A DNA stretch of 64,000 nucleotides from Candidatus Micrarchaeia archaeon (GCA_041663445.1 JBAYMR010000001.1:47393-111392), one strand, 5' to 3'; positions 4,667 to 62,560 are shown, numbered from the stretch's first letter. Numbers and translations are program-made. The notes: generated by a model from the sequence alone, not told the origin.

Positions 4667-4820
4667 AACCCCAACATGCAGGTTTTTAGTGGGATCGTAG
4701 GGATTTGCGTCGTTGCCGCTTCGCGACAACTTTGCATCCAAAAGCTTTGCTTTTGTCTGACCCCTAACATGCAGGTTTTCAGTGGGATCGTAGGGATTTG
4801 AACCCTAACATGCAGGTTTT
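4667..4820. repeat. 41-bp direct repeat x2 plus a truncated third copy (CRISPR-like mini-array?)
   Basis: aaccccaacatgcaggtttttagtgggatcgtagggatttg (4667-4707) and acccctaacatgcaggttttcagtgggatcgtagggatttg (4760-4800) are separated by a unique 52-bp segment. A third copy, aaccctaacatgcaggtttt (4801-4820), directly abuts copy 2 and then diverges. No cas genes in the window. Confidence 0.5.
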
Positions 4821-4852
4821 TTCTTTCCCCGAAGGGAGATCTGGAGCCTGCC

Positions 4853-4895
4853 GCGCTACCAAGTTACGCCACGACCCCCTATTTAACTACTTTTT
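4853..4895. repeat. Dispersed repeat family, copy A
   Basis: gcgctaccaagttacgccacgaccccctatttaactac shares aagttacgccacgaccccct with 15384-15403 and resembles gcgctaccgggttatgacgtg in copies C and D. Confidence 0.45.
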
Positions 4896-9469: not shown

Positions 9470-10186
9470 ATGGAAATCAGGACAGTGGTGCTTGACTTCG
9501 ACGGGACGCTTGCGCCCATCAGGCGCGACCCATCAGCCGTGCGGCTGCCCGCCTCGATGCGCAGGCAGCTCGCTGTAATGGTTGCCGCCGGGCTTGAGGT
9601 GATGGTGCTTTCAGGCAGGCCATACTCTTTCCTTAAAGCACAGGAATTCCCGAAGGGCGTGCGCCTGTGCGGGAATTTCGGCAACCCGTCCGGCAGGCGG
9701 CAGGCAGGATTTGGAAAGGGATTCCTGCTTGCGCTTGGCAGGCTCGCAAAAATACGCGGCGTGGAAGTGGAGCGCAAGGCAGGCTATGCCGTGCATTACA
9801 GGAAGGCAAGGCAACAAGACATTGAAAAAGTGAAGAAGCTTGTCTACATTGCGGCTGATGAAGCAGGGGACGGCGCGTCCATGCTTTATGGGAGGAAGGC
9901 AGTGGAAATACTCCCCGCCGGGGTCATGCCCAAAGAGGAATTCCTGTCAAAGCTGGCGGGCGAAAGAAACCACGGCGTGCTTTTCATAGGCGACGACCCG
10001 TCCGACCTCGCGGCAATGCACGCGCTTCGCAAAAAGGGCAACTTTTCCTGCGCGCTTGTAAAGTCGGGGGAAGTGGACTCGGGAGTTGGCAGCTGGCCTG
10101 CAAAGCTTCTGAACAGGCGCGCGCTTGAGCGCTTCCTCAGCCGGCTTGCGCGCGCACAAGGTCGACGTAATTCACATCCAGGCTAA
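9470..10186 (+). CDS. otsB: Trehalose-6-phosphate phosphatase (HAD superfamily)
   Basis: HAD motif I LDFDGTL, motif IV GDDPSD, and an operon arrangement with otsA. Confidence 0.8.
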   Translation: MEIRTVVLDFDGTLAPIRRDPSAVRLPASMRRQLAVMVAAGLEVMVLSGRPYSFLKAQEFPKGVRLCGNFGNPSGRRQAGFGKGFLLALGRLAKIRGVEVERKAGYAVHYRKARQQDIEKVKKLVYIAADEAGDGASMLYGRKAVEILPAGVMPKEEFLSKLAGERNHGVLFIGDDPSDLAAMHALRKKGNFSCALVKSGEVDSGVGSWPAKLLNRRALERFLSRLARAQGRRNSHPG

Positions 10187-15509: not shown

Positions 15510-16616
15510 CTAAAGCGGCTTTGGTTCGATTACCTTCCCGCCGGATGCCACCACCATGCGGCGCCCATCTTCAAAGATAGCATAGACGTCAGCCCGTATC
15601 GGCGAGATGGGCGCGTAAACTACATCCTGGTGCGTGCTTGCATCCACAACTCCGCTCCACGACCCTTTCGTTCCGAAATGGATGTTTTTCCCGTACGCTA
15701 TGTGTACGCCTGCTTTTTCCTCTTCTAGTATGTTCCCAAGCCTGGCGCTCGGATTCAAGCCAAATCCGAGTTCGGCGACGTTTGCGGCATTCGGGTCCTT
15801 TTCTATCAGAGCCAGGAGCTTCCTCGCAAAAGCAGAGTCGCCCGGCACCCCCACTATCCGGTTTTTCTCTACGAGCAGGAGAACTGTCTTCCCGTCCTCT
15901 GCAGAATAGACGGGCCATACGCCCTCGGTTTGCGAATTTCCAATCGCCGCAAGGGCGCCAGGGTGCACGCCTTCATAGGGCGTGCAGTAAAATTCAGCGC
16001 CTGGCAGGTTTGTAAACCCGTCGCCCGGATTCCTGCTGAATCCGGGGCTCATGTGCCAGTTCGCGTGCCTTGTGTCGACATACAATGAGAAGACCAGTCC
16101 CGGGGGGACATTGAAAGTTATTTCAAACCCAACAGCATCCTTCACCATGTTCATGGCTTTGGAGCCAAGCTCATTCATGGCGTCATGGTCCACAGACATG
16201 GCGCCCTCATTGCTTGAAACCACTGTCGGCATGCTAAGCCCGCGAACCGACCCTGTTTGTTTTGCTATTTCTTTAAGGTCAGCGGTCTGCGAATAGGTTG
16301 TCATTGCGACGACAATGTCCGCAGATTTTATTATGCCAACCACATTGGAGACTGGTTCGCCTCCAAATAGTCCGTCGGAAGGAAAATTGGCATTGTGTTT
16401 GCCGGGTTCCGCATATTTTAGAAGGGGGAGCACCTGAAAGCCAATCCTTTTTGACAGGACGGAAGCGGCTTTCACCCATCTAAGCAAAAGGTCGCGCCTG
16501 TCCTGCCTTTCAGGGTCAAGAGGGCCGTTCGGCTCATCGGTTACAAAGAGCAGCTTTTCGCCTTTCTTCGGCTGGAGGGCGCTGATGATCAATTTTTGGA
16601 TTCTTTCCTGAGACAT
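15510..16616 (-). CDS. M29-family aminopeptidase (AmpS/PepS/aminopeptidase T-like)
   Basis: N-terminal region ...SALQPKKGEKLLFVTDEP... and C-terminal KAGVHIAYGKN, which matches the HIAxG motif of M29 peptidases. The ORF extends to 16838; start trimmed to MSQERIQ. Confidence 0.65.
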   Translation of the reverse strand: MSQERIQKLIISALQPKKGEKLLFVTDEPNGPLDPERQDRRDLLLRWVKAASVLSKRIGFQVLPLLKYAEPGKHNANFPSDGLFGGEPVSNVVGIIKSADIVVAMTTYSQTADLKEIAKQTGSVRGLSMPTVVSSNEGAMSVDHDAMNELGSKAMNMVKDAVGFEITFNVPPGLVFSLYVDTRHANWHMSPGFSRNPGDGFTNLPGAEFYCTPYEGVHPGALAAIGNSQTEGVWPVYSAEDGKTVLLLVEKNRIVGVPGDSAFARKLLALIEKDPNAANVAELGFGLNPSARLGNILEEEKAGVHIAYGKNIHFGTKGSWSGVVDASTHQDVVYAPISPIRADVYAIFEDGRRMVVASGGKVIEPKPL

Positions 16617-16790
16617 GTTCCCCGACAGTTTTTGTCCTGAGAAGTCTTTTGTTGAACCGCTACATCCTTTTTGACTGAAATAAATGTTTTTTCTGAAAAT
16701 CATGTACCCACCCAGTCCATTTTCTGCATAGAAGTGCTTAAAAAGAATGGGTTGTGGAAAGTGCTCTTTCCAGTCAAAAACAGTTTTCTT

Positions 16791-16881
16791 TCTCGATGGC
16801 CCCAAGACAAAACGTAATAGGATACGCCATGCCCCCATCGTGCGCTACCGGGTTATGACGTGCAACACTTTAAATAGGTTT
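16791..16881. repeat. Dispersed repeat family, copy C (contains the TATA box TTTAAATA at 16869-16876)
   Basis: tctcgatggccccaagacaaaacgtaataggatacgccatgcccccatcgtgcgctaccgggttatgacgtgcaacactttaaataggttt. The 3' ~60 bp is nearly identical to 18372-18430. It lies immediately upstream of the AbiEi-like gene. Confidence 0.5.
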
Positions 16882-30127: not shown

Positions 30128-30982
30128 TTACATGAACTCCTCGACATACTTCGTGATGTCGGTGGATGAGATGTCGTGCTTCACGAGCGGCGCGTCCTTT
30201 ATGAACGGTATTTCGTCGGTGTAAATCGGCTTTTCGGATTTGTAGAACACGCCGATTGGCCAGCGCTCGGTTTCCTGCGCGCGCTTCATTGCCGCGTCCA
30301 GGCTGGACGGGTCGTGCCCTTCGGCTTCGAGCTTGTAGATTTTCTTCTGGTACAGGTCGTATGGAAGGTCTTTCCGCCAGCTCACGCAGGGCTGGAACAC
30401 GTCTATGTGGGCGATGCCCCTGTGGGCGATGCCTTGGGAAATCAGGCCGGTAAGATGGGGAATGTCCCCTGCAAAGCCGCGCGCGACAAACGTTGCCCCG
30501 GCGGAAAGGGACATCAGGATGGGGTTGATTTCGCGCTCTATCGCGCCGTTGGGCGTGGACTTCGTCTTTGTGCCCTGCTTCGTGGTCGGCGAGGTTTGCC
30601 CCGTGGTCAGCCCGTATATCTCGTTGTCCTGGACGATGTATGTGAAGTCCATGTTGCGCCGCATCGCGTGCACGAAGTGCCCCATGCCGATGCCGTACCC
30701 GTCGCCGTCCCCGCCCACCGCAATCACCGTGAGCGAATTGTTTGCGAGGTGGATGCCCTGCGCAGGGGGGAGGGAACGGCCGTGGAGCCCTTCAAAGCCG
30801 TATGCCTTTATGAAATGCGGGAGCTTGGAGCCGCAGCCCACACCGGAAACGACCACGGCCTCGTGCTGAGGGATGTTGAGCTTTGCAAGTGCGCCTTTCA
30901 GCGCTATCAGTATGCCGAAGTCGCCGCAGCCAGGGCACCAGGTGGGCATGTGGCCGGAGTTGAGTTCTGCAACGGTAACCAT
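30128..30982 (-). CDS. 2-oxoacid:ferredoxin oxidoreductase beta subunit (TPP-binding)
   Basis: C-terminal TPP-binding GDG...N region and an N-terminal Cys cluster (CPGCGDF). Confidence 0.85.
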   Translation of the reverse strand: MVTVAELNSGHMPTWCPGCGDFGILIALKGALAKLNIPQHEAVVVSGVGCGSKLPHFIKAYGFEGLHGRSLPPAQGIHLANNSLTVIAVGGDGDGYGIGMGHFVHAMRRNMDFTYIVQDNEIYGLTTGQTSPTTKQGTKTKSTPNGAIEREINPILMSLSAGATFVARGFAGDIPHLTGLISQGIAHRGIAHIDVFQPCVSWRKDLPYDLYQKKIYKLEAEGHDPSSLDAAMKRAQETERWPIGVFYKSEKPIYTDEIPFIKDAPLVKHDISSTDITKYVEEFM

Positions 30983-31010
30983 GGTATCACTCGCTTTCCA
31001 TCATTCACTT

Positions 31011-32765
31011 TCACTTTCGCCCGACGAGCCCAGCCACGTGCCCGGCAATCTCCTCGGGCGTGAACGGGCGCGCGTCGTAGCGCAGGTACGCTTTCTCTAT
31101 GTAATAGCCGGTCTTCTGCAATATGAGGGTGCGCATCTGCGCCTCGGAATTGCCCTCGATGATGACCGTGTTTTTCGATGCCTTGAGGGTCCGAAGCACG
31201 GCGGACGCCGGGAACGGCGAGGCGTACCTGATGTGCATGAGCCGCGCAGCCACGCCCTTCTGCTCAAGGAGCCTGAGCGCCTCGAGCGCCGGCCCTTTCG
31301 TGGAGCCCCAGCATACGATTGTGATGTCTGACAGCGCCACGGACGCCCCGTAGAACGAGGGCGCGATGAAAACCTCGGGGATTAGGGAGAGCTTTCTCGC
31401 GCGCTTGTCCACCTGCTTCACGCGCTCGGCGCCATCCTCAGTTGAAAAGCCAGTCTCGTCGTGCTCGTAGCTGGAGCAGACGTGCATCCCGTTCTTCTGC
31501 CCCGGCAGGCAGCGGTTCGAAATCCCGTTGGCAGTGTATTCGTAGCGCTTGAAGGCGGTTGCCGCCTCCATCTGCGCGTCGGCCATGAGCTTGCCGCGCT
31601 CGACCTTGAGCGGGAGCTTGCGGAAGTCCTCCACGGTCTGCGAGCTTTCGGAAAGGTACTTGTCAAGGAGCACGATGACCGGCACCTGGAGGAGCTCGGC
31701 GATGTTGAATGCGTTGAACGCCTCGACGTAGCATTCGGTGGCGTCGCCAGGCGCGACCACCACGCGCGGGAACTCGCCTTGCGAGGTGTGGAGCGAGAAG
31801 AGCAGGTCTGCCTGCTCGGTATATGTCGGGAGCCCGGTGGACGGGCCTGCGCGCTGGGAATTGAATATCACGCACGGGGTTTCCATCATGCCCATCATGC
31901 CGATTGCCTCGGACATGAGCGAAAAGCCGCCGCCGGACGTAGCTGTCATGGAGCGCGCGCCCGCAAACGCGGCGCCGGCAATCATGTTCGCCGCCGAAAT
32001 TTCGTCCTCGGTCTGTTTCACGATTATCCCGTAGTCGCGCTCGTGCCCAGCCATGAGGTGCAGTATCGCTGTGGACGGGCTCATGGGGTATTCCGCCACG
32101 AACTTGCAGCCCGCAGCAATCGCGCCAGCCACGGACGCCTCGTTGCCGTTTATGAAAAGCGTTTTCTCGCGCTTCACGAATTCCACCCTTGCCGGAAAGC
32201 TGCCGTTCGTGACGGACTTTGAAAAATCATAGCCTGCACGGGCCGCCGCGATGTTGGCGTCCACCACGCCCTGCCCTTTCCGCATCCATAGCTTGTGCAT
32301 CATGCCCTCGATTATCGAGAAATCCATGCAGAGGATTCCCATCGCGGCGCCGAGGGCGACTGTGTTGAACATTATCTCCCCGCCGGCTGCGGCCGCCATC
32401 TGGGAAAGGGGCGCGCCGACGTAGGCGATGTCCTGCCTTTTTGCGATTTCCTTTGCATCGCTTACCTTGCTTGAATCGTAAATGAGCGCGCCGCCCTCGG
32501 ACAGTTCTGATGCGCGCACCTCCACCGTCTTCTTGTCAAGCGCAATCAGTATGTCGGGCTTTCCCAGGAGGGAAAATATCGGCGTGGGGCTGGCGCTTAC
32601 CGCGTATGTGTTGTGCCCGCCCTTGATGAGAGACGGGTAGTCGTTTGTGCCGAATACCTCAAGCCCGCTCCGCTGCAGGCATTTTGCGAAAAGCGTGCCA
32701 ACCGAAGCAACGCCCGCCCCGGCAGGGCCACCTATGAGAAAGTTCACCCTATTCACATCAGCCAT
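31011..32765 (-). CDS. 2-oxoacid:ferredoxin oxidoreductase alpha subunit (fused gamma-alpha type)
   Basis: N-terminal gamma-like domain (FLIGGPAGAGVASVGTL...) followed by the alpha-subunit Pyr domain. Adjacent to the beta subunit. Confidence 0.85.
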   Translation of the reverse strand: MADVNRVNFLIGGPAGAGVASVGTLFAKCLQRSGLEVFGTNDYPSLIKGGHNTYAVSASPTPIFSLLGKPDILIALDKKTVEVRASELSEGGALIYDSSKVSDAKEIAKRQDIAYVGAPLSQMAAAAGGEIMFNTVALGAAMGILCMDFSIIEGMMHKLWMRKGQGVVDANIAAARAGYDFSKSVTNGSFPARVEFVKREKTLFINGNEASVAGAIAAGCKFVAEYPMSPSTAILHLMAGHERDYGIIVKQTEDEISAANMIAGAAFAGARSMTATSGGGFSLMSEAIGMMGMMETPCVIFNSQRAGPSTGLPTYTEQADLLFSLHTSQGEFPRVVVAPGDATECYVEAFNAFNIAELLQVPVIVLLDKYLSESSQTVEDFRKLPLKVERGKLMADAQMEAATAFKRYEYTANGISNRCLPGQKNGMHVCSSYEHDETGFSTEDGAERVKQVDKRARKLSLIPEVFIAPSFYGASVALSDITIVCWGSTKGPALEALRLLEQKGVAARLMHIRYASPFPASAVLRTLKASKNTVIIEGNSEAQMRTLILQKTGYYIEKAYLRYDARPFTPEEIAGHVAGLVGRK

Positions 32766-50835: not shown

Positions 50836-52617
50836 TTGAGCATGCCTACTCCAGGTATGGTTCAGATTGACCCTGTGCAGAGACAGACGTCTGCCACAGC
50901 AGATGTGTTTGATGCACGGCAGACAGCGCTTCAGGCGAAGCAGGATGTCAACCTTCTTATTGAGAAGTTGAAAAGCGAACTTCAATCATCCAAGCACGAA
51001 AGTCTTCAGATATTAAGCTCATTTCCAATCCCGATAAAAAAAGGACACGAATGGGAAATGAGGGAGACCTATCGTAAGGCAGCCTGCGATGCCAATGACC
51101 TTCTGAGAAAGGAGGGAGCGCCCATTGCCATCTGGCTAGAGGATGTTGGTGACAAGTTCCATATTGTGACTGGAAGATATGAGGAGCGAACGCCCAAAGT
51201 AATGCAAATTGAGGAAAAGATGCCGCAGGTCGTGCAGAGCGAAGAAGGTGGAAAGGCAGTTCCAGCAGTCACGCCCATATTCGACTTGACCGAAACTGAT
51301 AGAAATGAACTTTGTGTCACAAATGAGGTGCTGGCAGGCATGAAGCCCAATCAGTTGACAGATGGGCAATGGAAAGTGCTGAACAAGATTATGGATAAAA
51401 CAGCGGAGCACATATATGGGAAGAATTTCGACAAGCTTTCACAAGGCAGGAAAATCAATGTGCTGCGACACATATTCTCTCCCCACACCGATGAGGGAAA
51501 GGAACTTGGGTTTACATATTCTGGGAGCGCCGAGTTGAAAATAGCTGCGGAAACATTATCTTCTCTGAAGGGAGACTGTGATGACTTCTCGTTCTTGTAC
51601 ATAGCTTGCGCAAACCGCCTGGATGGCGAAGGCAGGCTGCATGTAAAAGACATAAAGCTGGCAGTTGTTGACTATTACGACCCAAAGAACAATGAAATCG
51701 GGGCGCATGCAAATGTCTTTCCCGTCGTCCTCAACAAGGTTGGCGGAAAGAGGGCAAAGATATTCCTTGTCGATTTGACTTTCAACACATCTACAACGCC
51801 GTTAGGACATAAGGAAAATGAGATTGATGCGAAAAACGACAAGTTCAGAGACAAATTCCTTGGACACATGAACGAGAGCAGGGAAGAAAAGAAAATCGAG
51901 GTAATGGAATTGCGCCTCTATGACGGTTTCACGGGGCTGCTTGCCTACTATTACACAAACAATGGGGCGACTCTTGCAAAGGAAGCTAAAGATATTGGCA
52001 AAAACTCCGAGAAGCAGATCGATGCACTCATGAAACTCGATGAATACGACAAGGTAGTGGCGATTTACCAGGACATAGACAATAAATTTGAGGATGCAAA
52101 GAAAGCCCTCAATGGAGCAATCGAGATTGGAAAAGAGAGCGGCTGCAACTATGGGGATGCGCTTGTTAGGATGGGCATCCTTTACTATGGACAGGGCAGC
52201 AATCTGATAAACTGGAGCACGCCACTATCCGCAAGCGGGAAATCGGAGGATGGCACAAAGAAAACAGCGAAAGGCATTGAACTCCACAGCGATTGCTACG
52301 CATATTTCAAAGAAGCGCTCGAACTACCAGACGTCAGTTCATTCGTGTTGAACGAGGGGGCAAAAGTGCTACGCGAGAGCCTGAACTCGGAAGGATATCT
52401 AATCGCAGAACAGATGGTTGTCAAGGCAATCAAGGCAGCACCATTCAAGCCAGAACTCTACGAAACGCTGCTGTCAATCATGAACAAGGAGGGCAAAACC
52501 TCAGAGGCTTTGAAGCTTTTGCAGGAGTATATAAAGGCCCCTGGGCTGCCTCCAGAAGTCAAGAAAATGATTGATGGTTTGATAACCGAGGCAGCGGGAG
52601 TACCCACTGAGCACTAG
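50836..52617 (+). CDS. Transglutaminase-like cysteine-protease-fold domain + C-terminal TPR-like helical repeats (593 aa), in a low-GC island
   Basis: Cys-His-Asp arrangement typical of the transglutaminase-like core: GDCDDFSFLYIACANRL ... GAHANVFPVV ... IFLVDLT. C-terminal amphipathic helical repeats. Local GC ~45% versus ~60% on the contig. Confidence 0.5.
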   Translation: MSMPTPGMVQIDPVQRQTSATADVFDARQTALQAKQDVNLLIEKLKSELQSSKHESLQILSSFPIPIKKGHEWEMRETYRKAACDANDLLRKEGAPIAIWLEDVGDKFHIVTGRYEERTPKVMQIEEKMPQVVQSEEGGKAVPAVTPIFDLTETDRNELCVTNEVLAGMKPNQLTDGQWKVLNKIMDKTAEHIYGKNFDKLSQGRKINVLRHIFSPHTDEGKELGFTYSGSAELKIAAETLSSLKGDCDDFSFLYIACANRLDGEGRLHVKDIKLAVVDYYDPKNNEIGAHANVFPVVLNKVGGKRAKIFLVDLTFNTSTTPLGHKENEIDAKNDKFRDKFLGHMNESREEKKIEVMELRLYDGFTGLLAYYYTNNGATLAKEAKDIGKNSEKQIDALMKLDEYDKVVAIYQDIDNKFEDAKKALNGAIEIGKESGCNYGDALVRMGILYYGQGSNLINWSTPLSASGKSEDGTKKTAKGIELHSDCYAYFKEALELPDVSSFVLNEGAKVLRESLNSEGYLIAEQMVVKAIKAAPFKPELYETLLSIMNKEGKTSEALKLLQEYIKAPGLPPEVKKMIDGLITEAAGVPTEH

Positions 52618-52623
52618 AGGGCG

Positions 52624-53238
52624 CTATCTTGGGACTGGTTCAGTTACTTTCTGGTTTCTCAGATGCTTGAGTTCCTGCCATTCTTCAAGCAATGCCTTCA
52701 CTTCCGCTGGTGTGTGGATTTTGAAGGCGTTCGATGGGGTTGCGCCCTTGTCGCTGAGAAAAGCAACACGCAATTCGTTCTTTGCATTCTCCCAGCGGCG
52801 CTCAAGTTCCACCCTATCTTCCTTGGAATATGAATTGAGGACTCTACCAGACAGACCGAAAGGCGGAGTGTAGTTTTCTGCATCCAGCCAAGCAGCACGG
52901 AAAGCGCCTAGCTCTGGTTTTTTCTCTGAAAATGTCTTGTCACTTAGCGAATTGGAATACGGCATGTAATGTTCAAGCGTCCTTACATCTGGAATTACCA
53001 GTTTAGGGATAGTGTCCATCGTCTTTGTCGTGTCTTTCTTCGCCTGTTCTATTGACTTGAAAGCCCCGGTTTGCATCAACAGCACGGTGTCACCCCCTTT
53101 TTTTGTTCCTTTGTTCTGCGAATATACCTTGGTAAATATGCCCGAAGTAAGTAAAAAAGCACCTGTAAGGAAGATAGCAGCGCCCACTCTGGAGACATGA
53201 CCTGTTTTTTGCCTGAAATGAGCCGTCTTGACGTGCAT
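52624..53238 (-). CDS. Hypothetical secreted/membrane-anchored protein (204 aa), low-GC island
   Basis: N-terminal hydrophobic segment VGAAIFLTGAFLLTSGIF; convergent with the transglutaminase-like gene. Confidence 0.4.
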   Translation of the reverse strand: MHVKTAHFRQKTGHVSRVGAAIFLTGAFLLTSGIFTKVYSQNKGTKKGGDTVLLMQTGAFKSIEQAKKDTTKTMDTIPKLVIPDVRTLEHYMPYSNSLSDKTFSEKKPELGAFRAAWLDAENYTPPFGLSGRVLNSYSKEDRVELERRWENAKNELRVAFLSDKGATPSNAFKIHTPAEVKALLEEWQELKHLRNQKVTEPVPR

Positions 53239-53821: not shown

Positions 53822-54547
53822 ATGGTCAATGCCCCAAGTATAGTAAGGAAAGGGATGGTGAACGACAAGGAATCGGCAGGGGACGCGGCGCTTGATTCGT
53901 TCCACAAGGTGATGAAAAAGATGCCCCGGCTGCGCGAGGGCAAGGCAGGGGATGGCAGCGCATGGCTGGCAGGGGCCTGCAAGGATAGGGGCGCGGGCTT
54001 TGGCATGGTCGTGGCGGAGGGGCCGCAAATCATCTCGGCAATCAGGCTTGGTGGCGGGAATGCAACCGCATTTTCCAAGCGCGGGATTTCGAAAATCGGG
54101 GAAATCCATGAATGCCGCACCTACTGCGTGGCTACGGTGGAAGGCGTGGAATTCGCCTCGAAGGGGGCGTTCTGGATGTGGTCGGCGTCAAAAGACTACC
54201 ACGACATATGCGGGCACCTCAACGGGCTGCAGGCATATGACGCAACCGGCGGGGTTGACATCGCGATTATTGGCGGCGCGGCTGAACTCCTGAAGGGAAG
54301 CGTGCAGACAAAGCATGGCAATTACAGCTTCAGCTTCTTCGCAAGGAATTTTGCCGAGGGCAAAAAGGCAATCAGGTGCGACTATTCTATGCTGCTTGAG
54401 GGGGAGAACGTCTGGAACGCCGCTCAGGCGCAGCAGGACGGCACGCTGGAAAAAATATTCAACAAGATGCGGGCGGCTGCGAAGAAAATGTTCCCGAGCG
54501 AAATGTGGGGGCAGGTAAAGCTGGAAAACGTGATTGGCGCGCCCTAG
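53822..54547 (+). CDS. Hypothetical protein (241 aa)
   Basis: ORF only; several Cys/His (HECRTYC, HDICGH). Confidence 0.4.
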   Translation: MVNAPSIVRKGMVNDKESAGDAALDSFHKVMKKMPRLREGKAGDGSAWLAGACKDRGAGFGMVVAEGPQIISAIRLGGGNATAFSKRGISKIGEIHECRTYCVATVEGVEFASKGAFWMWSASKDYHDICGHLNGLQAYDATGGVDIAIIGGAAELLKGSVQTKHGNYSFSFFARNFAEGKKAIRCDYSMLLEGENVWNAAQAQQDGTLEKIFNKMRAAAKKMFPSEMWGQVKLENVIGAP

Positions 54548-55644
54548 CGCACGTATTCTTCCGCCGCTTTCACGATGTTCTGGAAGAAGCGCAGGCTGTT
54601 TTTCTCGTAGGAGATTCCCGCAGTGAAGCGCGGGAACTGCGTCCTGTACATGCTGCATTCGGGGTGGGGCATGAGCCCCAGAATCTTGCCCGTCCTGTCG
54701 CAGATGCCCGCGATGTCATAAGGTGAGCCGTTCGGGTTGGCAGGGTAGCCTGGGGAGTCGGACATCTTTTCATCGGTGTAGCGCAGCGCCACCATGCCCT
54801 GCCTCTTGAGCGAGGCAAGAAGCTCGGAGTCGCGCGGAACGAACTGCCCCTCGCCGTGCCTGACAGGGCACTGGATGAATGATACGCCCTCGAAGTATTT
54901 GCACACCGACTTTTGCGGCTTGAGGTAGACCCAGCGGTCCTCGAACCTGCCGCTCTTGTTGAACGTGAGCGTGGACTCCTGGGAAGACGAGCCGGACAGG
55001 TTCGGCAGCGCGCCAAGCTTCACCAGTGTCTGGAACCCGTTGCACACGCCGAGCATTGGCTTGCCGGATGACACGAACTCGTCGAACTGCGCCCGGAACG
55101 TGCTCTTGAGCTTGTTGGAAAGCACGCGCCCGCCAGCGATGTCATCGCCGAACGACCAGCCGCCGGGTATTGCGAATATCTCGTAGTGGGACAGCTTTTC
55201 CCTGCCCGATGAAATGTCCGAGAAGTGCACTATCTTCGCATCGGCCCCTGCAAGGCAGAATGCGTGCGCAAGCTCAGCCTCGGCATTCAGGCCAAAGCCG
55301 GCGAGCACGATGCAGCGCGGCCTGCGCTTTTCCGCTGCGGACGGCAAAGCATGCACGGCTGCAGTGCGCCTTTGTTTCGCAGGGGCACTGGCCGGCTTTT
55401 TCGCAGCGCCCGCCCCGGATGGCTTTTTCGCATTTGCCGCCCTTGCCTTTGCTTTTGCCGCCATCATCTTCACCGTCTTTTTCTGCGCGCGCCGTTTGGC
55501 CGCCATATTTTTCGCCGAGGGCTTGGCTTTTTTATTCGCCGCCCCGCCCGCCATCTTCTTCACTGCCACTTTGGTTTTTTTCTTCGCTGGGGGCTTGGCT
55601 TTTTTCCTTGCAGTTCCCCTGCCCGCTGTTTTCCCTGATGCCAT
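54544..55644 (-). CDS. purQ: Phosphoribosylformylglycinamidine synthase subunit PurQ (glutaminase) with an apparent ~100-aa Lys/Ala-rich N-terminal extension
   Basis: Class-I GATase: CIVLAGFG..., GVCNGFQ catalytic Cys, HPE... C-terminal region. The N-terminal KKAKPPAKKKTK... extension may instead reflect a mis-called start. Confidence 0.8.
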   Translation of the reverse strand: MASGKTAGRGTARKKAKPPAKKKTKVAVKKMAGGAANKKAKPSAKNMAAKRRAQKKTVKMMAAKAKARAANAKKPSGAGAAKKPASAPAKQRRTAAVHALPSAAEKRRPRCIVLAGFGLNAEAELAHAFCLAGADAKIVHFSDISSGREKLSHYEIFAIPGGWSFGDDIAGGRVLSNKLKSTFRAQFDEFVSSGKPMLGVCNGFQTLVKLGALPNLSGSSSQESTLTFNKSGRFEDRWVYLKPQKSVCKYFEGVSFIQCPVRHGEGQFVPRDSELLASLKRQGMVALRYTDEKMSDSPGYPANPNGSPYDIAGICDRTGKILGLMPHPECSMYRTQFPRFTAGISYEKNSLRFFQNIVKAAEEYVR

Positions 55645-55648
55645 ATGA

Positions 55649-58600
55649 TTACCAGTCCATTGTCACTTTCCATGCCGATGCGAGCGCGCCTACCGAGGCC
55701 TCCACTTCCTGCCTGCCGTTGACGGACACCTTAAGCTCGCCGCCCTTCACCTCGCCCACGCGCTCGCACGCCGCGCCGCGCATGAGCGCGGCAAACGCGC
55801 GCTCGTCCTTCCTTTTCACGGACACCACGAACCTGCCTGCGCTTTCCGAGAACAGGAGCTGCACCGGGGTGAGCTTGGCTTTCGGGAACGAGACGTCCGC
55901 GCCGACATTGCCGCCGATGCAGCATTCGGCAAGCGCCACCGCCAGCCCGCCCTCGGAGCAGTCGTGGCACGAGGACACCAGGCCGCGCTTTATCGCGGAC
56001 TCAAGCTTCCTGTAAAGCGCGAAATTCCTCCTGAAGTCCACGCACGGCACGATTGTGCCGGTTGAATTGCGCATGGCGTAATATTCCGAGGCGCCCAGCT
56101 CCGCGCGCGTGGTTCCCAGGACGTAAATGGCATCGCCTTGCGACTTGAAGTCGGTTGTCTGCGAGAGTGAAACGTCGTCCGTCCTGCCCACTGCGGAAAT
56201 GAGGAGGGTTGGCGGGACGGATATCCTCCACCTGCCGTGCTTGTAGTCGTTTTTCATGCTGTCCTTGCCGGAGATGAGCGGCGCGCCGTATGCAAGGCAG
56301 GCGTCGTAGAGCCCGCGGCATGAGGCAACGAGCTGGGCGAGCCTGTGCCGCCCGTCGGGATTGTCAGGGGACGCTATCGGGTCGCACCAGCAGAAATTGT
56401 CAAGGAGCGTGAGCCTGTCAAGCGAGCCTCCGGCGGAAACATAGTTCCTCACCGCCTCGTCAACGGCGTTCGCGGCCATCTGGTATGCGTCAATGTCGGA
56501 ATAGCGCGCGCATATCCCGTTCGACACCACCAGGCCTTCCTTCCTGCCAAGCAATGGCGCGACCACTCCGGCATCGGAAGGCCCGTCGGCTTTCACGCCG
56601 CACAACGGCTTTATCACCGAGCTGCCCTGCACCTCGTGGTCGTACTGCCTGATTATGTATTCCTTGGAGCAGATGTTCGGGCGGGAAAGCAGCGAGATGA
56701 GCACCGCGCCGAGGTTCTGGTTTTCAGGGAGGGCAGGCTCGGACAGCTTCAGCGTGCGGAGCTCGGCCTCAAGCTGCAGCTGCGGCACGCCCTTGTGCAG
56801 GAACTGCATGGAAAGGAATGCGACAACCCTTGCGCCGTACATCACGCGCAGGAAGCCGGAGGCGTTGAACTCCCCGAGGTCGGAAACCTCCACGTCGCGC
56901 AGGCGCGCAAGCGAGACAAACTCCCCTGCCTTGCCGGGCGGAACCGCAATGGTCATCCGCTCCTGCGACTCGGAAACGAAAATCTCCCACGGGTCAAGCC
57001 CGGGGTATTTGAGCGGCGCGCGGTCAAGGTGCACGCTGCACCCCCCGCTCATCTCGGCCATCTCGCCGACAGAGGACGATAGCCCGCCCGCGCCATCGTC
57101 GGTTATCGCGTTGTAGAGGCCCAGGTCGCGCGCCTCGAGCACGAAGTCCACCACTTTTTTCTGCGTGTAGGGGTCGCCGAGCTGGACGGCGGAAACAGGC
57201 GAGCCTTCGTTCATCTCCTGGCTTGAGAACGTGGCGCCGTGTATGCCGTCCTTGCCAATCCTGCCGCCCACCATGAATATCCTGTCACCGGGCAGCACGC
57301 GCTTCTCGTGCGTTTTCCTCCCGTCAGGAAGCAGTGAGGGCATCATCCCGCCCGTGCCGCAGTAGACCAGCGGCTTCCCGAGGTACCGCCCGTCAAAGTA
57401 AAGCGAGCCGTTCACTGTCGGGATGCCGGAGGCGTTGCCGCCAGCAGCCACGCCCGCCCTCACGCCTTCAAGCACGCGGCGCGGGTGGAACAGGCGCGGC
57501 GGGATTTCCCCCTGATAGTGCGGGTCTGCGAAGCAGAAGACATCGGTGTTGAAAATCGGGCGCGCGCCCATGCCGCAGCCGAGGATGTCGCGGTTCACGC
57601 CAAGTATGCCCGTGAGCGCGCCGCCGTACGGGTCGAGCGCGGACGGGGAGTTGTGCGTCTCCACCTTCATCGCCACGCTCCAGCCGGGGACGAATTCGAA
57701 CACGCCTGCGTTGTCCGAGAAGACCGAGAGCAGCCATTTCCTTTTCCTGGCAAGCCTGGTCGTGGCGCCCTTTATGTACGTCTTGAAGATGGAATCCACG
57801 ACTTTCTTTTTCCTGCCCTCGGTCAGCGTGATTTTCGCGTTGAATATCTTGTGCTTGCAGTGCTCGGACCACGTCTGCCCGAGCGCCTCAAGCTCCACGT
57901 CGGTTGGCACGGGCATGAGGCCCGCCTTCCTGCGCTCCTCGGCGACAGCAGGGTCCATGTAATATGCCTTGATTCTCTTCATTTCCTCGAGCGAGAGCGC
58001 AAGCAGCCGCTCGCGCGAAATCTCTACGAGGCGCTTGTCGGGTACGTTGAGGTCAATGTCCGCCACCTTGCCCCCGCCCATCGCGCCCACGCGCGGGACG
58101 TCCGCGGAAAACCCGGCAGCCCCGAATTCCTGCGCCGTCTTCACCTCGAAGCGCTGGATAAGCTCGTTTGCCAAAAGTTCGCGCGCGGCCTTTTCGCCTT
58201 CCTGCTTCGCCATCTTGCCCGCTATCAGGTAGTGCCTGCTGGAATACACCGCGCCGGAAAGCTTTTTCCCGAGCAGCTCCTCCATCGCCTCGCGCGCCGT
58301 GCCGCCCACGTTGTCCTTCACGCCCGGGCGGAACGAGACTGCGATGGCGACGGAAAACTTCGGGGGGAGGAAAAGCGGCCTGTCAACTGAGAAGGATTGG
58401 TTTATTGGGTCGCAGAGAAGCTCCGCGCCCACGCGCGCAAGCTCTGCTTCGGGCAAGTCGTCATCAATCGTGTAAACGTCCAGCACGCGCACGGATTTTG
58501 CGTCGGCAATGCCCAGGTCGGACTTTATCCTGCGGAGTACAGCATCGCCTGCAGGGTCTATAAATTCTGGCAGGTAGCCGGTTTCTATCCTGTGCGCCAT
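55649..58600 (-). CDS. purL: Phosphoribosylformylglycinamidine synthase PurS-PurL fusion (983 aa)
   Basis: N-terminal ~85 aa is PurS-like, followed by PurL AIR-synthase-related domains (…GLMPVPTDVELEALGQTWSEHCKHK…). Operon with purQ. Confidence 0.9.
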   Translation of the reverse strand: MAHRIETGYLPEFIDPAGDAVLRRIKSDLGIADAKSVRVLDVYTIDDDLPEAELARVGAELLCDPINQSFSVDRPLFLPPKFSVAIAVSFRPGVKDNVGGTAREAMEELLGKKLSGAVYSSRHYLIAGKMAKQEGEKAARELLANELIQRFEVKTAQEFGAAGFSADVPRVGAMGGGKVADIDLNVPDKRLVEISRERLLALSLEEMKRIKAYYMDPAVAEERRKAGLMPVPTDVELEALGQTWSEHCKHKIFNAKITLTEGRKKKVVDSIFKTYIKGATTRLARKRKWLLSVFSDNAGVFEFVPGWSVAMKVETHNSPSALDPYGGALTGILGVNRDILGCGMGARPIFNTDVFCFADPHYQGEIPPRLFHPRRVLEGVRAGVAAGGNASGIPTVNGSLYFDGRYLGKPLVYCGTGGMMPSLLPDGRKTHEKRVLPGDRIFMVGGRIGKDGIHGATFSSQEMNEGSPVSAVQLGDPYTQKKVVDFVLEARDLGLYNAITDDGAGGLSSSVGEMAEMSGGCSVHLDRAPLKYPGLDPWEIFVSESQERMTIAVPPGKAGEFVSLARLRDVEVSDLGEFNASGFLRVMYGARVVAFLSMQFLHKGVPQLQLEAELRTLKLSEPALPENQNLGAVLISLLSRPNICSKEYIIRQYDHEVQGSSVIKPLCGVKADGPSDAGVVAPLLGRKEGLVVSNGICARYSDIDAYQMAANAVDEAVRNYVSAGGSLDRLTLLDNFCWCDPIASPDNPDGRHRLAQLVASCRGLYDACLAYGAPLISGKDSMKNDYKHGRWRISVPPTLLISAVGRTDDVSLSQTTDFKSQGDAIYVLGTTRAELGASEYYAMRNSTGTIVPCVDFRRNFALYRKLESAIKRGLVSSCHDCSEGGLAVALAECCIGGNVGADVSFPKAKLTPVQLLFSESAGRFVVSVKRKDERAFAALMRGAACERVGEVKGGELKVSVNGRQEVEASVGALASAWKVTMDW

Positions 58601-58753
58601 TGAAACTCCAGCCGGGAATTTTCAGACAGCCGCGCGCGCAGCCCGTTCTCCCACGGCAGTGCATGCGGAAGCAACATTTATAAGAGGGGAGCGGATTTTG
58701 CACACTAAAGAACAGGGAAAAACACTAAAAAGAAGGTGAAAACCAAGCAACCG

Positions 58754-60256
58754 CTATTCATCTACAAAAAGCAACGCCCGATTGTCATGCTGGCTACAAA
58801 GGAAAGTCGTATGAACATTATATATCGCATACCCATCTTCTTCCATTCGTTTGCCTGCAATCGTGTCCCAGTCAAATTCCCCGAACGCAGCAATGTATTT
58901 TCCAGATGCTTCTAGAAGACCAAGATTGTGACCGAATTTTGTGTCGATAAAAATTTCACCAGATTGAAGCCAGTCGTGGTTAGACTTATTAGTAAATCCT
59001 ATCGCTTTCACATGAGAAAGGGATTTCAACGAGTAGACTAGTTCACCACCCCAACTCTTGCCTAAAACATCGCTATCAATCAACAAAATGAAGTGCCTGT
59101 GCACCCTGTTGATTTTGGATATCCGCTCCCAGCCTTCTTTATCGAATATGTGCACGATTACGGGTGCATCGTCATCACCAGAACCCTGCACAAATGCTGA
59201 ATAAGCCAGCACTTTTCCGTTTATCATGGACGTGTCGATTGAGAGATGGAAAGAGTCCTTGACAGAGACCTGGTTGATGAAAAATACTGGCTTTTCATTT
59301 TCAGCACGCAATGCCCATTCAAGATCCTCCGCTGTTCCAGTAATTTGCATGTATTTTTCGAGGGAGCAATAAAGTTTGTCCATAGTCAAACTAGTGTGGT
59401 AAAAATCTACCTTGTGATTCCAAATTGGTAGCGCCGTGACAATCGTATTGTTTTCAAGAAGTAGCCTTGCGCCTAGAAAGAAGCTTTTGGGGGAGAGATC
59501 GCGTTCATTGGCAGTGTCATAAATAAAGCGCTGTGCGGAATTGCAGCCGTAGATTAATTCACGTATGGTCGTCAACCTATCAAATACCTCGACAGCCAGG
59601 CCAGCATCCATATCTTTCAAGTCAGCCAAGCCTTGAAAAGCAGTCACGGTGGGAACTGTATCGCCCCATAGACTATAAGTTTGAGCAAGGCCAGAAAGCC
59701 TTGGAGCATAGGCGCTGCCCAGCGTCGTAAATACTTTCTCGGCTACAAGCGGTTCCACCATTATTGCAATTCCATCGGGAAATCCAGTGTTGGCACGGAA
59801 ACGCACAGCGTCCGAAGAATAATGGCTCTTGATGACTTCTTTGACAAAATACTCAACAGAATCAAGGCGATTCATAAAGAAAAATGATTTGTATGCGCCA
59901 GTTCCTTTTGCATCACCATGCGCTGATGAACGTACTGCCAGCGCAGGCTCGTCCCCAAACGCACGACATATCAACTCAAAAACTGCAAGTTCGCCGCGGC
60001 TGAATTTCCCTTTGTCGATTAAGGCGCACATTTCAACATAAGTCGCCCCTTTTGCCCAAGCATCAGATGCGCCGCAGCGTTGCAGGAATTCATTGACAAA
60101 AGGTATGGATAATATTTGCCTTACCATAAGCTGGAAGTCGGCGCGGAGCAGATGTTCGTGACCATTGAATAAATTATAGGCTTTGCCACCCATATGCGCA
60201 GAGGTTTTCTCCCCTCCATGCACCACGAACAGCTCTTTTTTGGTTTGTATATTCAT
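58754..60256 (-). CDS. Stand-alone PEP/pyruvate-binding (PPDK_N, ATP-grasp-like) domain protein (500 aa), low-GC island
   Basis: HGGEKTSAHMGGKAYNL and LAVRSSAHGDAKGTGAY match the GGK(G/A)ANL and VAVRSSAxxED...(S)FAG motifs of PEP synthase/PPDK N-domains. No phospho-His (GG.TSHAAI) domain is present. Local GC ~45%. Confidence 0.55.
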   Translation of the reverse strand: MNIQTKKELFVVHGGEKTSAHMGGKAYNLFNGHEHLLRADFQLMVRQILSIPFVNEFLQRCGASDAWAKGATYVEMCALIDKGKFSRGELAVFELICRAFGDEPALAVRSSAHGDAKGTGAYKSFFFMNRLDSVEYFVKEVIKSHYSSDAVRFRANTGFPDGIAIMVEPLVAEKVFTTLGSAYAPRLSGLAQTYSLWGDTVPTVTAFQGLADLKDMDAGLAVEVFDRLTTIRELIYGCNSAQRFIYDTANERDLSPKSFFLGARLLLENNTIVTALPIWNHKVDFYHTSLTMDKLYCSLEKYMQITGTAEDLEWALRAENEKPVFFINQVSVKDSFHLSIDTSMINGKVLAYSAFVQGSGDDDAPVIVHIFDKEGWERISKINRVHRHFILLIDSDVLGKSWGGELVYSLKSLSHVKAIGFTNKSNHDWLQSGEIFIDTKFGHNLGLLEASGKYIAAFGEFDWDTIAGKRMEEDGYAIYNVHTTFLCSQHDNRALLFVDE

Positions 60257-60327
60257 GTTTTAATTATGTGTCAAAAGATATAAAAATGTATGGATAATCT
60301 CCCATTAACAGAATAGACACGCACATG

Positions 60328-61461
60328 TTAGAACAAATACCCGCTCGCATCCTCCGCAAGCCCCACTCCGCCGCCAAGGTCGGACAGCGTATATTCGCGC
60401 CCGCCTTCGCGCAACGCGAACGATTTCACGCGCACGAGGTATTCGTCGTAGCGGAAGGTGGTCTTCTGGCGCATCACGAACGGCTGGAGCGCGTAGGTCT
60501 CCATTGCGCAGAAGAAGTTCTTGCCTGAAAGCACCCAGATTTTCCTTTCCCCTTCAAGGTACGTCTGGATGGACAGGCTGTGGAGCTTCACCCGCCTGCC
60601 GTGTATCTCGAAATAATAGTTCGAGGCAAAGCGAAGGCCCGAGCTGTTGCCAAACGGCTTGCCCGTGAAAACGTCAAGAGCCGCGCCGTTGCCGAACTGC
60701 AGCCGCACCCAGTTCCACGGGGCAAGCGGCATGGTCGCCACCACTTTCTGCAAATACGCCTTGCCGGACAGTTTCTTGCCCTCAAGCACGCCGTCAAACT
60801 CGAAATAGTAGTTTATCATCGCCGCGCCGAAGCGCGGGGCAACGGGATTTGCGAGTATGTGCACCATTTCATGGTGCTTGCCCTCCGACGGGTGGTAGGC
60901 GCGCGCGGTGAAAATCTTCTTCCCGCCCTTCACAAGCTCCACGTCGAAATGGGGATATTTTCCCGATATCGTGATTTTGCTTCCCCCGTCCCTCGCCTCA
61001 AGCAGGTTTTTCTCCCTGCCCTTTTCCAGCCGCACGCGCGCGGATGAATCGAATATCACCTGCTTGCCATTGGAGGACTGCAGCCAGCAGACTGCGGCGC
61101 ACACCACGCCCTGCTGCGCGTTCCCCTCGGGCACGGCGACGCCGTTCACGAGCACCGGGTCAACCGAGCGCCCCATGGTGAGTATCACCTGCTCCTCGCG
61201 CGGCGGGGCGCAGAAATGCAGGAACCAGTATTCCTTGCCCATGGAAGGCAAGTCCTCTATCTCGAAGAAAAGCTCGTCGGGGGTAGGGTATTTTTTCGAC
61301 TCGAACAGGCGCGAGAACTCGGACAGCTTGGAGTTGAGCTGGCCCGTTTTCTTCTTCCATTCCGGGCCAAGCCTGAAATTGCGCAGCTTGGAAAGTGTGC
61401 GGTTGGGCATGGCAATCAAAGCAGCTTCAGCGGCAACTTTAATTAACGTTTGGCACCCCAC
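60328..61461 (-). CDS. Hypothetical protein (377 aa)
   Basis: ORF only; directly upstream of and co-directional with the PPDK_N-domain gene. Confidence 0.4.
   Translation of the reverse strand: MGCQTLIKVAAEAALIAMPNRTLSKLRNFRLGPEWKKKTGQLNSKLSEFSRLFESKKYPTPDELFFEIEDLPSMGKEYWFLHFCAPPREEQVILTMGRSVDPVLVNGVAVPEGNAQQGVVCAAVCWLQSSNGKQVIFDSSARVRLEKGREKNLLEARDGGSKITISGKYPHFDVELVKGGKKIFTARAYHPSEGKHHEMVHILANPVAPRFGAAMINYYFEFDGVLEGKKLSGKAYLQKVVATMPLAPWNWVRLQFGNGAALDVFTGKPFGNSSGLRFASNYYFEIHGRRVKLHSLSIQTYLEGERKIWVLSGKNFFCAMETYALQPFVMRQKTTFRYDEYLVRVKSFALREGGREYTLSDLGGGVGLAEDASGYLF
61436..61447 (+). promoter_or_regulatory. TATA-like box upstream of tRNA-Pro
   Basis: ctttaattaacg, about 30 bp upstream of the tRNA 5' end. 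Confidence 0.3.
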
Positions 61462-61472
61462 TAACAGATGAC

Positions 61473-61545
61473 GGGGGAATGGGCTAACCTGGTATGCTAC
61501 TAGGTTTGGGACCTAGTGATTCGAGTTCAAATCTCGATTCCCCCA
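61473..61545 (+). tRNA. tRNA-Pro (anticodon UGG)
   Basis: Acceptor GGGGGAA/UUCCCCC, anticodon arm CUAGG-UUUGGGA-CCUAG, T arm UCGAG-UUCAAAU-CUCGA, discriminator A. Confidence 0.85.
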
Positions 61546-61576: not shown

Positions 61577-62560
61577 ATGAAATACGGAAACTCGGAATTG
61601 CGCGGGAAATTCGTGCTTGGCCCCATGGCGGCATACACCGACATTGCGTTCAGGCTTCTTTGCAGGCGCGCGGGCGCGGCGATGTGCTTCACCGAGTTTG
61701 CAAATGCAGAAGCCATCAGCCGGGACGGGAAGAATACCGGCGCGCTTCTCCGGACGTGCAATGAGGAGATGCCCGTCGGCATACAGATATTCGGCGCAAC
61801 GCCCGAGGCGATGGGAAAGGCTGCGGCAACAATAAGCGCGCGCGTGCAGGGCGGGGAGCTGTTTGCCTCGTGCATAGACATCAACTTCGGCTGCCCGGCA
61901 GGGAGCGTAATCCGCGCGGGCGCGGGAAGCGCGCTTTTGAAAAGCCCGGAGAGGATGCGCGCGATTGCCGAGGCGTGCGTGGAGCGCTCGGAAATCCCTG
62001 TGACCGCAAAGATACGGGCGGGGTGGAAAAGCGACAGCGCAGTGGAGCTTGCAAAAATGCTGGAAAGCGCCGGAGTGTCGGGCATCACGGTGCACTGGAG
62101 GACTGCGACAGAGGGGAGGAAAAGGCAGGGCGGCTGGGAAGCGCTGCGCGAGGTCAAGGGGGCGGTGGGCATCCCGGTGATTGGCAATGGCGGCGCGTCC
62201 ACCCCTGAAAAGGCAGTGCGGTTCCTTGACGAGACGGGCTGCGATGCGGTGATGATTGCGTCGGCGGCACTGGGCAACCCGCACATTTTTTCGCAGGCGA
62301 ACGATTTGCTGGAAAAGGGGAGATACAAAGAAACGCTTTGGGGCGAAAAGCGCGCATCGTTCCTGGAATACTGCTCGCTCGCCCAGAAATACGAGGTTGC
62401 AACGCCCAAGAGGATGCGCGCGCAGGCAATCGAATGGGTCACGGGCTTCAACGGCGTGAAAGAGGCAAGGAAAAGGCTCAACGCGGCAAAAACAGGCCAG
62501 GAGATTGAAGGGATAGTGTCGGGGTTCGAGCCCTCAACAGTTCAGGCTAACCAGACATGA
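61577..62560 (+). CDS. tRNA-dihydrouridine synthase (Dus family, FMN-dependent TIM barrel)
   Basis: …LGPMAAYTDIAFRLLCRRAGA…IDINFGCPAGSV… with the catalytic Cys and a K/R-rich C-terminal helical domain. Confidence 0.85.
   Translation: MKYGNSELRGKFVLGPMAAYTDIAFRLLCRRAGAAMCFTEFANAEAISRDGKNTGALLRTCNEEMPVGIQIFGATPEAMGKAAATISARVQGGELFASCIDINFGCPAGSVIRAGAGSALLKSPERMRAIAEACVERSEIPVTAKIRAGWKSDSAVELAKMLESAGVSGITVHWRTATEGRKRQGGWEALREVKGAVGIPVIGNGGASTPEKAVRFLDETGCDAVMIASAALGNPHIFSQANDLLEKGRYKETLWGEKRASFLEYCSLAQKYEVATPKRMRAQAIEWVTGFNGVKEARKRLNAAKTGQEIEGIVSGFEPSTVQANQT

Follow-up and report, generated by a model that had tools for sequence, protein, structure and literature searches.

A low-GC gene for a PPDK_N domain protein occupies a variable slot beside purL in a Micrarchaeia archaeon

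Introduction

Two neighbouring genes on the minus strand, called A and B here, lie between positions 58754 and 61461 of a 64,000-nt stretch of DNA (the window) from a metagenome-assembled genome (MAG) of a Candidatus Micrarchaeia archaeon, a member of the DPANN archaea, and pose the question of whether they were acquired together and act together or are neighbours by position only. A preliminary description of this DNA took the pair for a low-GC island beside a tRNA-Pro gene and for a possible acquired two-gene modification or defence module, in which a 500-aa protein carrying PPDK_N, the phosphoenolpyruvate (PEP)/pyruvate-binding domain of PEP synthase and pyruvate phosphate dikinase (PPDK), was accompanied by a 377-aa partner to which no function could be assigned. 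Both open reading frames (ORFs) are indeed present, co-directional on the minus strand at 58754-60256 (500 aa) and 60328-61461 (377 aa when read from a GTG). On balance a different arrangement is probable, in which A is a single accessory gene in a variable slot of a conserved backbone and would encode a self-contained phosphotransferase of the phosphohistidine type, with B an unrelated native gene. The practical result is a corrective one, the apparent two-gene island being one accessory gene in a variable slot of a DPANN backbone.

Composition of the locus

Composition statistics were drawn from the 54 genes called in the window, which have a mean GC of 0.570 (standard deviation 0.041) and a mean GC at third codon positions (GC3) of 0.712 (standard deviation 0.098). 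By exact count the GC of gene A is 0.450, in agreement with the value of about 45% first given for it and the lowest of the 54 genes (z -2.9), with a GC3 of 0.448 (z -2.7) and a codon-usage distance of 1.71 that is second only to the 1.72 of an ORF at 30176-31063. Gene B is native in composition (GC 0.584, GC3 0.780, codon distance 0.62). The 71 bp that separate the two genes are AT-rich with a GC of 0.296, such that the deviant segment comprises A and this spacer, from about 58745 to 60325. Since only A and the spacer deviate and B is typical, the low-GC island previously drawn over the whole of 58754-61461 shrinks to a single gene plus spacer. Gene A looks like a horizontally acquired, compositionally foreign accessory gene and to this extent the acquisition proposed earlier is borne out, but it does not extend to B and there is no acquired pair.

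A variable slot between B and purL

Transcription on the minus strand runs in the order B, A, purL, purQ (Table 1). The backbone shared with relatives is Dus - tRNA-Pro - B - purL - purQ, with the PurL proteins of relatives 69-87% identical to that of the window, and the content of the space between B and purL varies from relative to relative (loci are designated by L numbers). In five relatives (L009, L013, L017, L019 and L022) the slot is empty, measuring about 90-220 bp. In L001/L002 it holds A, 69% identical to the A of the window and intact in L001, while in L010 and L011 it holds longer A-family proteins of 756 and 691 aa, which are 39% identical to each other and belong to a different subfamily that is not close to A. 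Unrelated ORFs fill the slot in L012 (410 aa, on the opposite strand) and L014 (621 aa), neither giving a match to Pfam, to PADLOC or to the A family. In every relative examined, the slot genes have a GC3 below that of the flanking genes.

The edges of the slot can be placed by the region upstream of purL, which comprises T-tracts, a TATA-like element TTATAAAT and a leader and is conserved in a DNA alignment of the window with L001, L009, L013 and L022. With its start about 10 nt past the stop codon of A, this region sets the right-hand limit of the A cassette. In L009 the same region lies directly 3′ of the B stop codon, and in L013 it is set off by a short non-conserved spacer, so that the difference is a clean single-gene indel. 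The region had no match in a scan of Rfam, which returned only tRNA, and its predicted fold was no better than that of shuffled sequences (z 0.67). T-tracts follow the stop codon of A, and a TATA-like element TTTTTATAT in the spacer ahead of A suggests that A has its own archaeal promoter with a short or absent leader.

Neighbour-joining trees of the slot relatives were built for B, for the N-terminus of PurL and for their concatenation. In both single-protein trees the empty-slot loci L017, L019 and L022 fall outside the inner clade as three outgroups. In the tree of B and in that of the concatenation the window groups with its nearest relative L009, whose slot is empty, and L001, in which A is present, groups with L011, which carries a long A-like protein, and with the empty L013. 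These groupings of filled with empty slots indicate that what the slot holds does not track the phylogeny of the core genes. The B-purL spacer is a variable slot holding one accessory gene, A, in this genome.

Distribution of A and B in other genomes

A protein database search returned 101 homologues of B from Micrarchaeota and other archaea, and 79 B loci were kept in a genome scan, spanning Micrarchaeota, Altiarchaeia, Aenigmatarchaeota, Nanohalarchaeota, Undinarchaeota and the cultured Methanosarcina, Methanolobus and Methanomethylovorans. A hidden Markov model (HMM) of the A family matched in only three of these 79 loci, namely L010 and L011, which belong to one clade and have the match adjacent to B, and L035, in which it lies 8 kb from B. 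The reciprocal search with a B-family HMM gave no match in any of 22 A-family loci. In the LacPavin MAG GCA_026396415.1 a 42%-identical homologue of A is on contig 35 and B is on contig 44. A and B do not co-occur as a conserved two-gene module beyond inherited synteny, and with B native and widely conserved there is no acquired two-gene module. The preliminary description had itself stated that a partner broadly conserved without the PPDK_N gene would speak against its module, and this is what the survey of B found; the co-occurrence of the pair in other genomes, which it had proposed as a check, was likewise not borne out.

The tRNA-Pro side of B

The tRNA-Pro gene lies close to the pair, as the earlier account had it, with B sitting between tRNA-Pro and A. 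This proximity reflects conserved synteny and carries no mark of integration, with the position of tRNA-Pro conserved in L002, L011, L012, L014, L017 and, by BLAST, L019. The gene is also present in L001 (6013-6159), L009 (118-267) and L013 (9221-9370), where tRNA-Pro(UGG) bears an intron of about 75 nt at position 38/39; the window copy is intron-less. In L001 a tyrosine integrase lies beside tRNA-Pro, and in L011 a 19-nt copy of the tRNA-Pro 5′ end is found at 9920-9938, about 780 bp away. The integrase of L001 and the tRNA-end repeat of L011 point to the tRNA side of B as another variable site, prone to integration. Within the window a search for a further copy of the tRNA-Pro end and for repeats bounding the A cassette found neither, and none of the ORFs there was identified as an integrase, B having no Pfam match. 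As such the deviant composition throughout, integrase and tRNA-end repeat expected of a tRNA-integrated genomic island are absent from this locus.

The ATP-grasp domain and family of gene A

The product of gene A, which has an identical counterpart in NCBI in the Candidatus Micrarchaeia archaeon entry 'PEP/pyruvate-binding domain-containing protein' of a 164,855-bp contig, consists of a divergent PPDK_N ATP-grasp domain (residues ~1-335) followed by a family-specific domain (residues ~336-500) with an invariant histidine, His443. The Pfam model PPDK_N (PF01326) matches A above its gathering score (33.8 versus 27 bits, E 2.9e-8) over residues 92-175 only, confirming the domain assigned in the preliminary description; the motifs quoted there, GGKAYNL and VRSSAHGDAKGTGAY, are both present. 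The same model matches 68 of 71 relatives of A, in some cases over profile positions 3-318 of 328. When the A-family profile was compared with the PDB only PEP synthases and rifampin phosphotransferase (RPH) were matched, the match to RPH (5FBS/5HV1) being confined to the ATP-grasp domain (query 73-348), while hhalign of the A family with Escherichia coli PpsA gave a Prob of 96% with query 22-433 aligned to target 21-427. Across about 150 family sequences Lys25 in GGK is conserved in 144/144, Arg109 in RSSA in 155/156, and Glu313 and Gln329 in the motif 'EWA...Q' each in 157/157. These four residues are the nucleotide and Mg2+ ligands of PPDK and PEP synthase, and A has a complete ATP-grasp domain with the residues for nucleotide and Mg2+ binding.

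Relatives of A were few in a word-indexed protein search, which returned four matches. An exhaustive profile search returned 404 cluster representatives among 1.84 billion, with 142 at E<=1e-30 that are mostly full length; the metagenome scan for the family used a 16-sequence subset alignment. The family consists of proteins of about 500 aa and is rare, fast-diverging and patchy, occurring mostly in Micrarchaeota, and its longer members show no additional Pfam domain. Genes next to A-family members are heterogeneous with a weak apparent lean to nucleoside and nucleotide enzymes. Adjacent paralogue pairs are seen at two loci, in tandem at L004 (6981-11111) and convergent at L095 (7565-10954), with the pair of L004 (GCA_026396415.1) preceded by a PfkB kinase and adjoined by an amidohydrolase, and one relative lies beside an integrase. 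The defence role once suggested for the locus finds nothing in its favour, with no family of PADLOC-DB v2 matching A, B or the other slot genes at E<=0.1, no relative in a scan of viral contigs, no match in phage and plasmid searches and no conserved partner. Literature searches on the topics PPDK_N, DUF2099 and hydroxyarchaeol enzymes brought up nothing about the A family or the B family.

The C-terminal domain of gene A and a possible mechanism

No Pfam match to a TIM barrel (PF02896) was obtained for the protein, which stops at residue 500, so that the PEP-utilising C-terminal domain is absent, as previously noted. The statement that the phosphohistidine swivel domain is also lacking can be upheld only in so far as Pfam PEP-utilizers does not match. 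The C-terminal ~165 aa of A, for which there is no Pfam model, contain His443, which is present in 152/152 relatives and as conserved as the catalytic residues of the ATP-grasp domain. In hhalign comparisons with PpsA, PtsI and a 16-sequence swivel profile the family histidine aligns to the catalytic histidine, with statistics that are non-significant, and the sequence pattern and the order of predicted secondary-structure elements appear collinear with the canonical topology of the swivel domain. A cryptic phosphohistidine domain is the likeliest identity of this region, though at roughly even odds, and A as a whole is most likely a self-contained ATP-dependent phosphotransferase.

The phosphohistidine chemistry that we infer would begin with the binding of Mg-ATP by the ATP-grasp domain via Lys25, Arg109, Glu313 and Gln329. 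A phosphoryl or pyrophosphoryl group would then move to the invariant His443, as it does in PEP synthase, PPDK and RPH, and His443 would in turn hand phosphate to an acceptor that may be a small molecule. Because A has no third domain, this acceptor would have to bind either the ATP-grasp core, for example the poorly conserved region ~190-300, or the C-terminal domain.

Of the known systems, the N-terminal domain of PEP synthase and PPDK (PF01326) shares with A the ATP-grasp signature, the lysine of GGK, the arginine of RSSA and the E...Q Mg2+ pair. Unlike these enzymes A has no TIM barrel and no detectable PEP-utilizers swivel domain and is only 500 aa long, with the A family having GD[SAC][RK]GTG[IA]Y in place of their longer ED...SFAGQ loop. 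RPH (PDB 5FBS, 5HV1), a small-molecule phosphotransferase and among the best PDB sequence matches of A, resembles it in having a PPDK_N ATP-grasp domain without a TIM barrel and in being encoded by an accessory gene, its catalytic histidine lying in a C-terminal domain. It differs in its size of about 865 aa and in its three domains, which include a large rifampin-binding domain and a recognisable swivel domain, neither being detectable in A. The PPDK_N module is also used outside PEP and pyruvate metabolism on another acceptor by the split dikinase-type enzymes phenylphosphate synthase and AcvAB. In these the histidine domain is on a separate subunit encoded next door, whereas a swivel-profile search found no such partner in the window and none recurs beside A-family members. 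The ~500-aa A family is uncharacterised and may show the minimum size of a dikinase-type phosphotransferase, with its patchy and fast-evolving occurrence in host-dependent Micrarchaeota suggesting a niche-specific role, for example in detoxification, salvage or host interaction.

Gene B

All database homologues of B start at the ATG at 61410, and the TATA-like element TTAATTAAA lies inside the longer reading frame initiated at GTG. On both grounds B most likely starts at 61410 and encodes 360 aa, such that the 377-aa ORF described previously exists but is probably not the protein made. Sequence searches placed B in no known family, with no Pfam or NCBIfam match at E<=1 and no PDB sequence-profile match at E<=10. 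The AlphaFold2 (AF2) model of B has a pLDDT of 85 and a pTM of 0.83, and a Foldseek search with it returned the fungal decalin Diels-Alderases Fsa2/Phm7/CghA, kievitone hydratase and 25-phosphosteroid lyase with a prob of 1.0 and E from 5e-8 to 1e-4, the matches covering 360-400 columns of the full-length two-barrel structure at a TM of about 0.40-0.50. The model thus predicts two tandem lipocalin-like β-barrels, placing B by fold in the AttH/CrtC-like double β-barrel superfamily. This group includes relatives of carotenoid 1,2-hydratase together with the enzymes just named, which act on isoprenoid or polyketide hydrophobic chains; their sequence identity to B is only 9-14%.

Elsewhere in Micrarchaeota, B adjoins both a distant paralogue of itself and a flavoprotein of the geranylgeranyl-reductase family at 11 loci, with the three genes arranged in at least three orders, and a twelfth locus (L018) has the reductase and lacks the paralogue; the loci concerned are L015, L016, L018, L020, L025, L026, L028-L031, L033 and L035. 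In the Methanosarcinales loci L068-L087 DUF2099 is a conserved upstream neighbour of B. The fold of B together with its geranylgeranyl-reductase-family neighbour points to isoprenoid-lipid chemistry, and B probably works as an enzyme on isoprenoid lipids. The B family is unannotated and archaeal, occurring in several DPANN lineages and Methanosarcinales, and its fold and recurrent geranylgeranyl-reductase-family neighbour make B a candidate archaeal lipid-modifying enzyme.

Alternative explanations

That A and B are an acquired two-gene modification or defence module integrated beside tRNA-Pro draws on their adjacency and common direction at a distance of 71 bp, an arrangement kept in the L001/L002 lineage, on the A-family genes that directly follow B in L010 and L011 as well, and on the use of tRNA-Pro as an integration target in relatives, seen in the integrase of L001 and the 19-nt repeat of L011. 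Set against this are the native composition of B and its conservation over 79 loci of which only three have an A-family gene, a slot that is empty in five relatives including the nearest, the separate contigs of the two genes in one MAG and the absence of B from all 22 A-family loci. The promoter-like element of A's own, the syntenic position of tRNA-Pro on the far side of B and the lack of a PADLOC match argue in the same direction, and the acquired module, already largely refuted, must be judged highly improbable. A different tie would exist if A-family proteins were minimal, self-contained dikinases of a new class, with an ATP-grasp domain and a cryptic, strongly divergent phosphohistidine domain, that move among DPANN archaea as fast-evolving accessory genes and had been recruited beside B as a clade-specific 'phosphorylate then eliminate' system, in which A would phosphorylate a tertiary isoprenoid alcohol and B would eliminate the phosphate, giving an ATP-dependent dehydration. 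In Sterolibacterium a separate kinase and lyase carry out such an ATP-dependent dehydration (PMC8449060), and if the proposal were true A and B would be the archaeal analogue of its 25-hydroxysteroid kinase/25-phosphosteroid lyase pair; the resemblance of the B fold to 25-phosphosteroid lyase, kievitone hydratase and CrtC-like enzymes, the two A subfamilies directly downstream of B in one clade and the clustering of B elsewhere with a geranylgeranyl-reductase-family gene would all be in keeping with it. A direct analogy was rejected, since the Sterolibacterium 25-hydroxysteroid kinase is an APH-type phosphotransferase and not a PPDK_N enzyme (PMC8449060), which leaves only a loose one. With most B genes having no A within 10 kb, no A-family locus containing B, a slot that also takes unrelated genes, and A foreign where B is native, such a dehydration system can be given only a very small probability.

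Other explanations concern A alone. As a stand-alone resistance or detoxification enzyme A would phosphorylate an external toxin or antibiotic in the manner of RPH, which is among its closest solved relatives, and its status as an accessory gene exchanged horizontally would then be accounted for. Such a role would fit a cassette of one gene that sits in a variable slot with a promoter-like region of its own, and likewise the patchy distribution, fast divergence and paralogue pairs of the family and the integrase beside one relative; but A is without the large substrate-binding domain of RPH (500 versus ~865 aa), no plasmid, phage or virus copies were found and there is no clue to a substrate. 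This is unlikely as a specific assignment, and is a special case of the self-contained phosphotransferase rather than a true alternative to it. Slightly less likely again is that A serves the metabolism of nucleosides or nucleotides in these salvage-dependent DPANN archaea, for instance by phosphorylating one of them as a dikinase. This would accord with the position of purL/purQ next to A in the window and with family neighbours such as a PfkB kinase, an amidohydrolase, NTPase_1, a cytidylyltransferase/DUF359 protein, a PNP_UDP_1 nucleoside phosphorylase and a creatininase-family protein. Yet across independent loci no one neighbour turns up repeatedly, the genes beside family members also include those for ribosomal proteins, NAC, EF-P, a MutS-like protein, TraG, an M23 peptidase and HTH proteins, and the apparent enrichment is probably within chance, with the adjacency of purL a by-product of slot position. 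That A is a decaying or non-catalytic remnant of PEP synthase or PPDK might be read from its weak and partial Pfam match, its want of a TIM barrel and its low GC, but is extremely unlikely given an intact ORF, the same full-length architecture in ~142 clusters, the invariance of His443 and of the ATP-grasp catalytic residues, and the intact 69%-identical copy in L001.

The preferred reading of A, as a single accessory gene for a self-contained phosphohistidine-type phosphotransferase and unrelated to B, also has observations that weigh against it. Pfam PEP-utilizers (PF00391) matches neither A nor any of 71 relatives, and hhalign of the C-terminal profile gave P=0.054 with the PpsA swivel region, 0.38 with PtsI and 0.23 with the 16-sequence swivel profile. 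Likewise, hmmsearch with the swivel profile reached a best E of 0.047, which is non-significant, and comparison of the C-terminal profile with the PDB returned nothing relevant. The AF2 model of A, made from a four-sequence alignment, is poor (pLDDT 45), and Foldseek of this model against the PDB found nothing at E<=0.001. The genes beside A-family members are heterogeneous, and no acceptor can be named. The low GC of A could partly reflect weak codon-usage selection rather than recent transfer, and the presence of two A subfamilies in the slot beside B in one clade could hint at a local functional tie missed by the wider survey.

Flanking genes and other features

Table 1. Features of the A-B locus and of the slot in two relatives. 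Positions are those of the window, except for the two slot genes of L012 and L014, which are numbered within their own loci.
Feature	Position	Strand	Remarks
Gene A	58754..60256	-	500-aa ORF, intact
Gene B	60328..61410	-	360 aa, ATG start; mechanical ORF to GTG at 61461 = 377 aa
purL (FGAM synthase with fused PurS)	55649..58600	-	Pfam AIRS, AIRS_C, FGAR-AT_linker, PurS
purQ (GATase_5)	54544..55644	-	
tRNA-Pro(UGG)	61473..61545	+	ARAGORN; Rfam tRNA 60.8 bits
Dus (tRNA dihydrouridine synthase)	61577..62560	+	Pfam Dus E 4e-63; synteny
TATA-like TTTTTATAT	60278..60286	-	~28 nt 5′ of the ATG of A, within the B-A spacer; sequence read directly
TATA-like TTAATTAAA	61438..61446	-	~36 nt 5′ of the ATG of B at 61410; sequence read directly
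purL upstream region (T-tracts, TATA-like TTATAAAT at 58676-58683, leader)	58601..58745	-	alignment of window, L001, L009, L013, L022
Unrelated slot gene, L012	11097-12329	-	410 aa; low GC3
Unrelated slot gene, L014	11171-13036	+	621 aa; low GC3

The genes that follow A on the minus strand have features of their own. Pfam PurS matches PurL at residues 84-154, a PurS-like segment at the N-terminus which indicates a PurS-PurL fusion, and PurQ is extended at its N-terminus by about 105 aa of low complexity, rich in lysine and alanine, which is unusual for PurQ. Further low-GC ORFs without a Pfam match occur in the window at 50836-53238 and 15510-16838, encoding 593 aa (GC 0.472), 204 aa (GC 0.471) and 442 aa (GC 0.514), the 593-aa and 204-aa ORFs presumably being the first low-GC island of the preliminary description, in which the A-B locus was counted as the second. 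The length of a tRNA-Trp gene on the minus strand at 4782-4878, 97 nt, suggests that it contains an archaeal tRNA intron.

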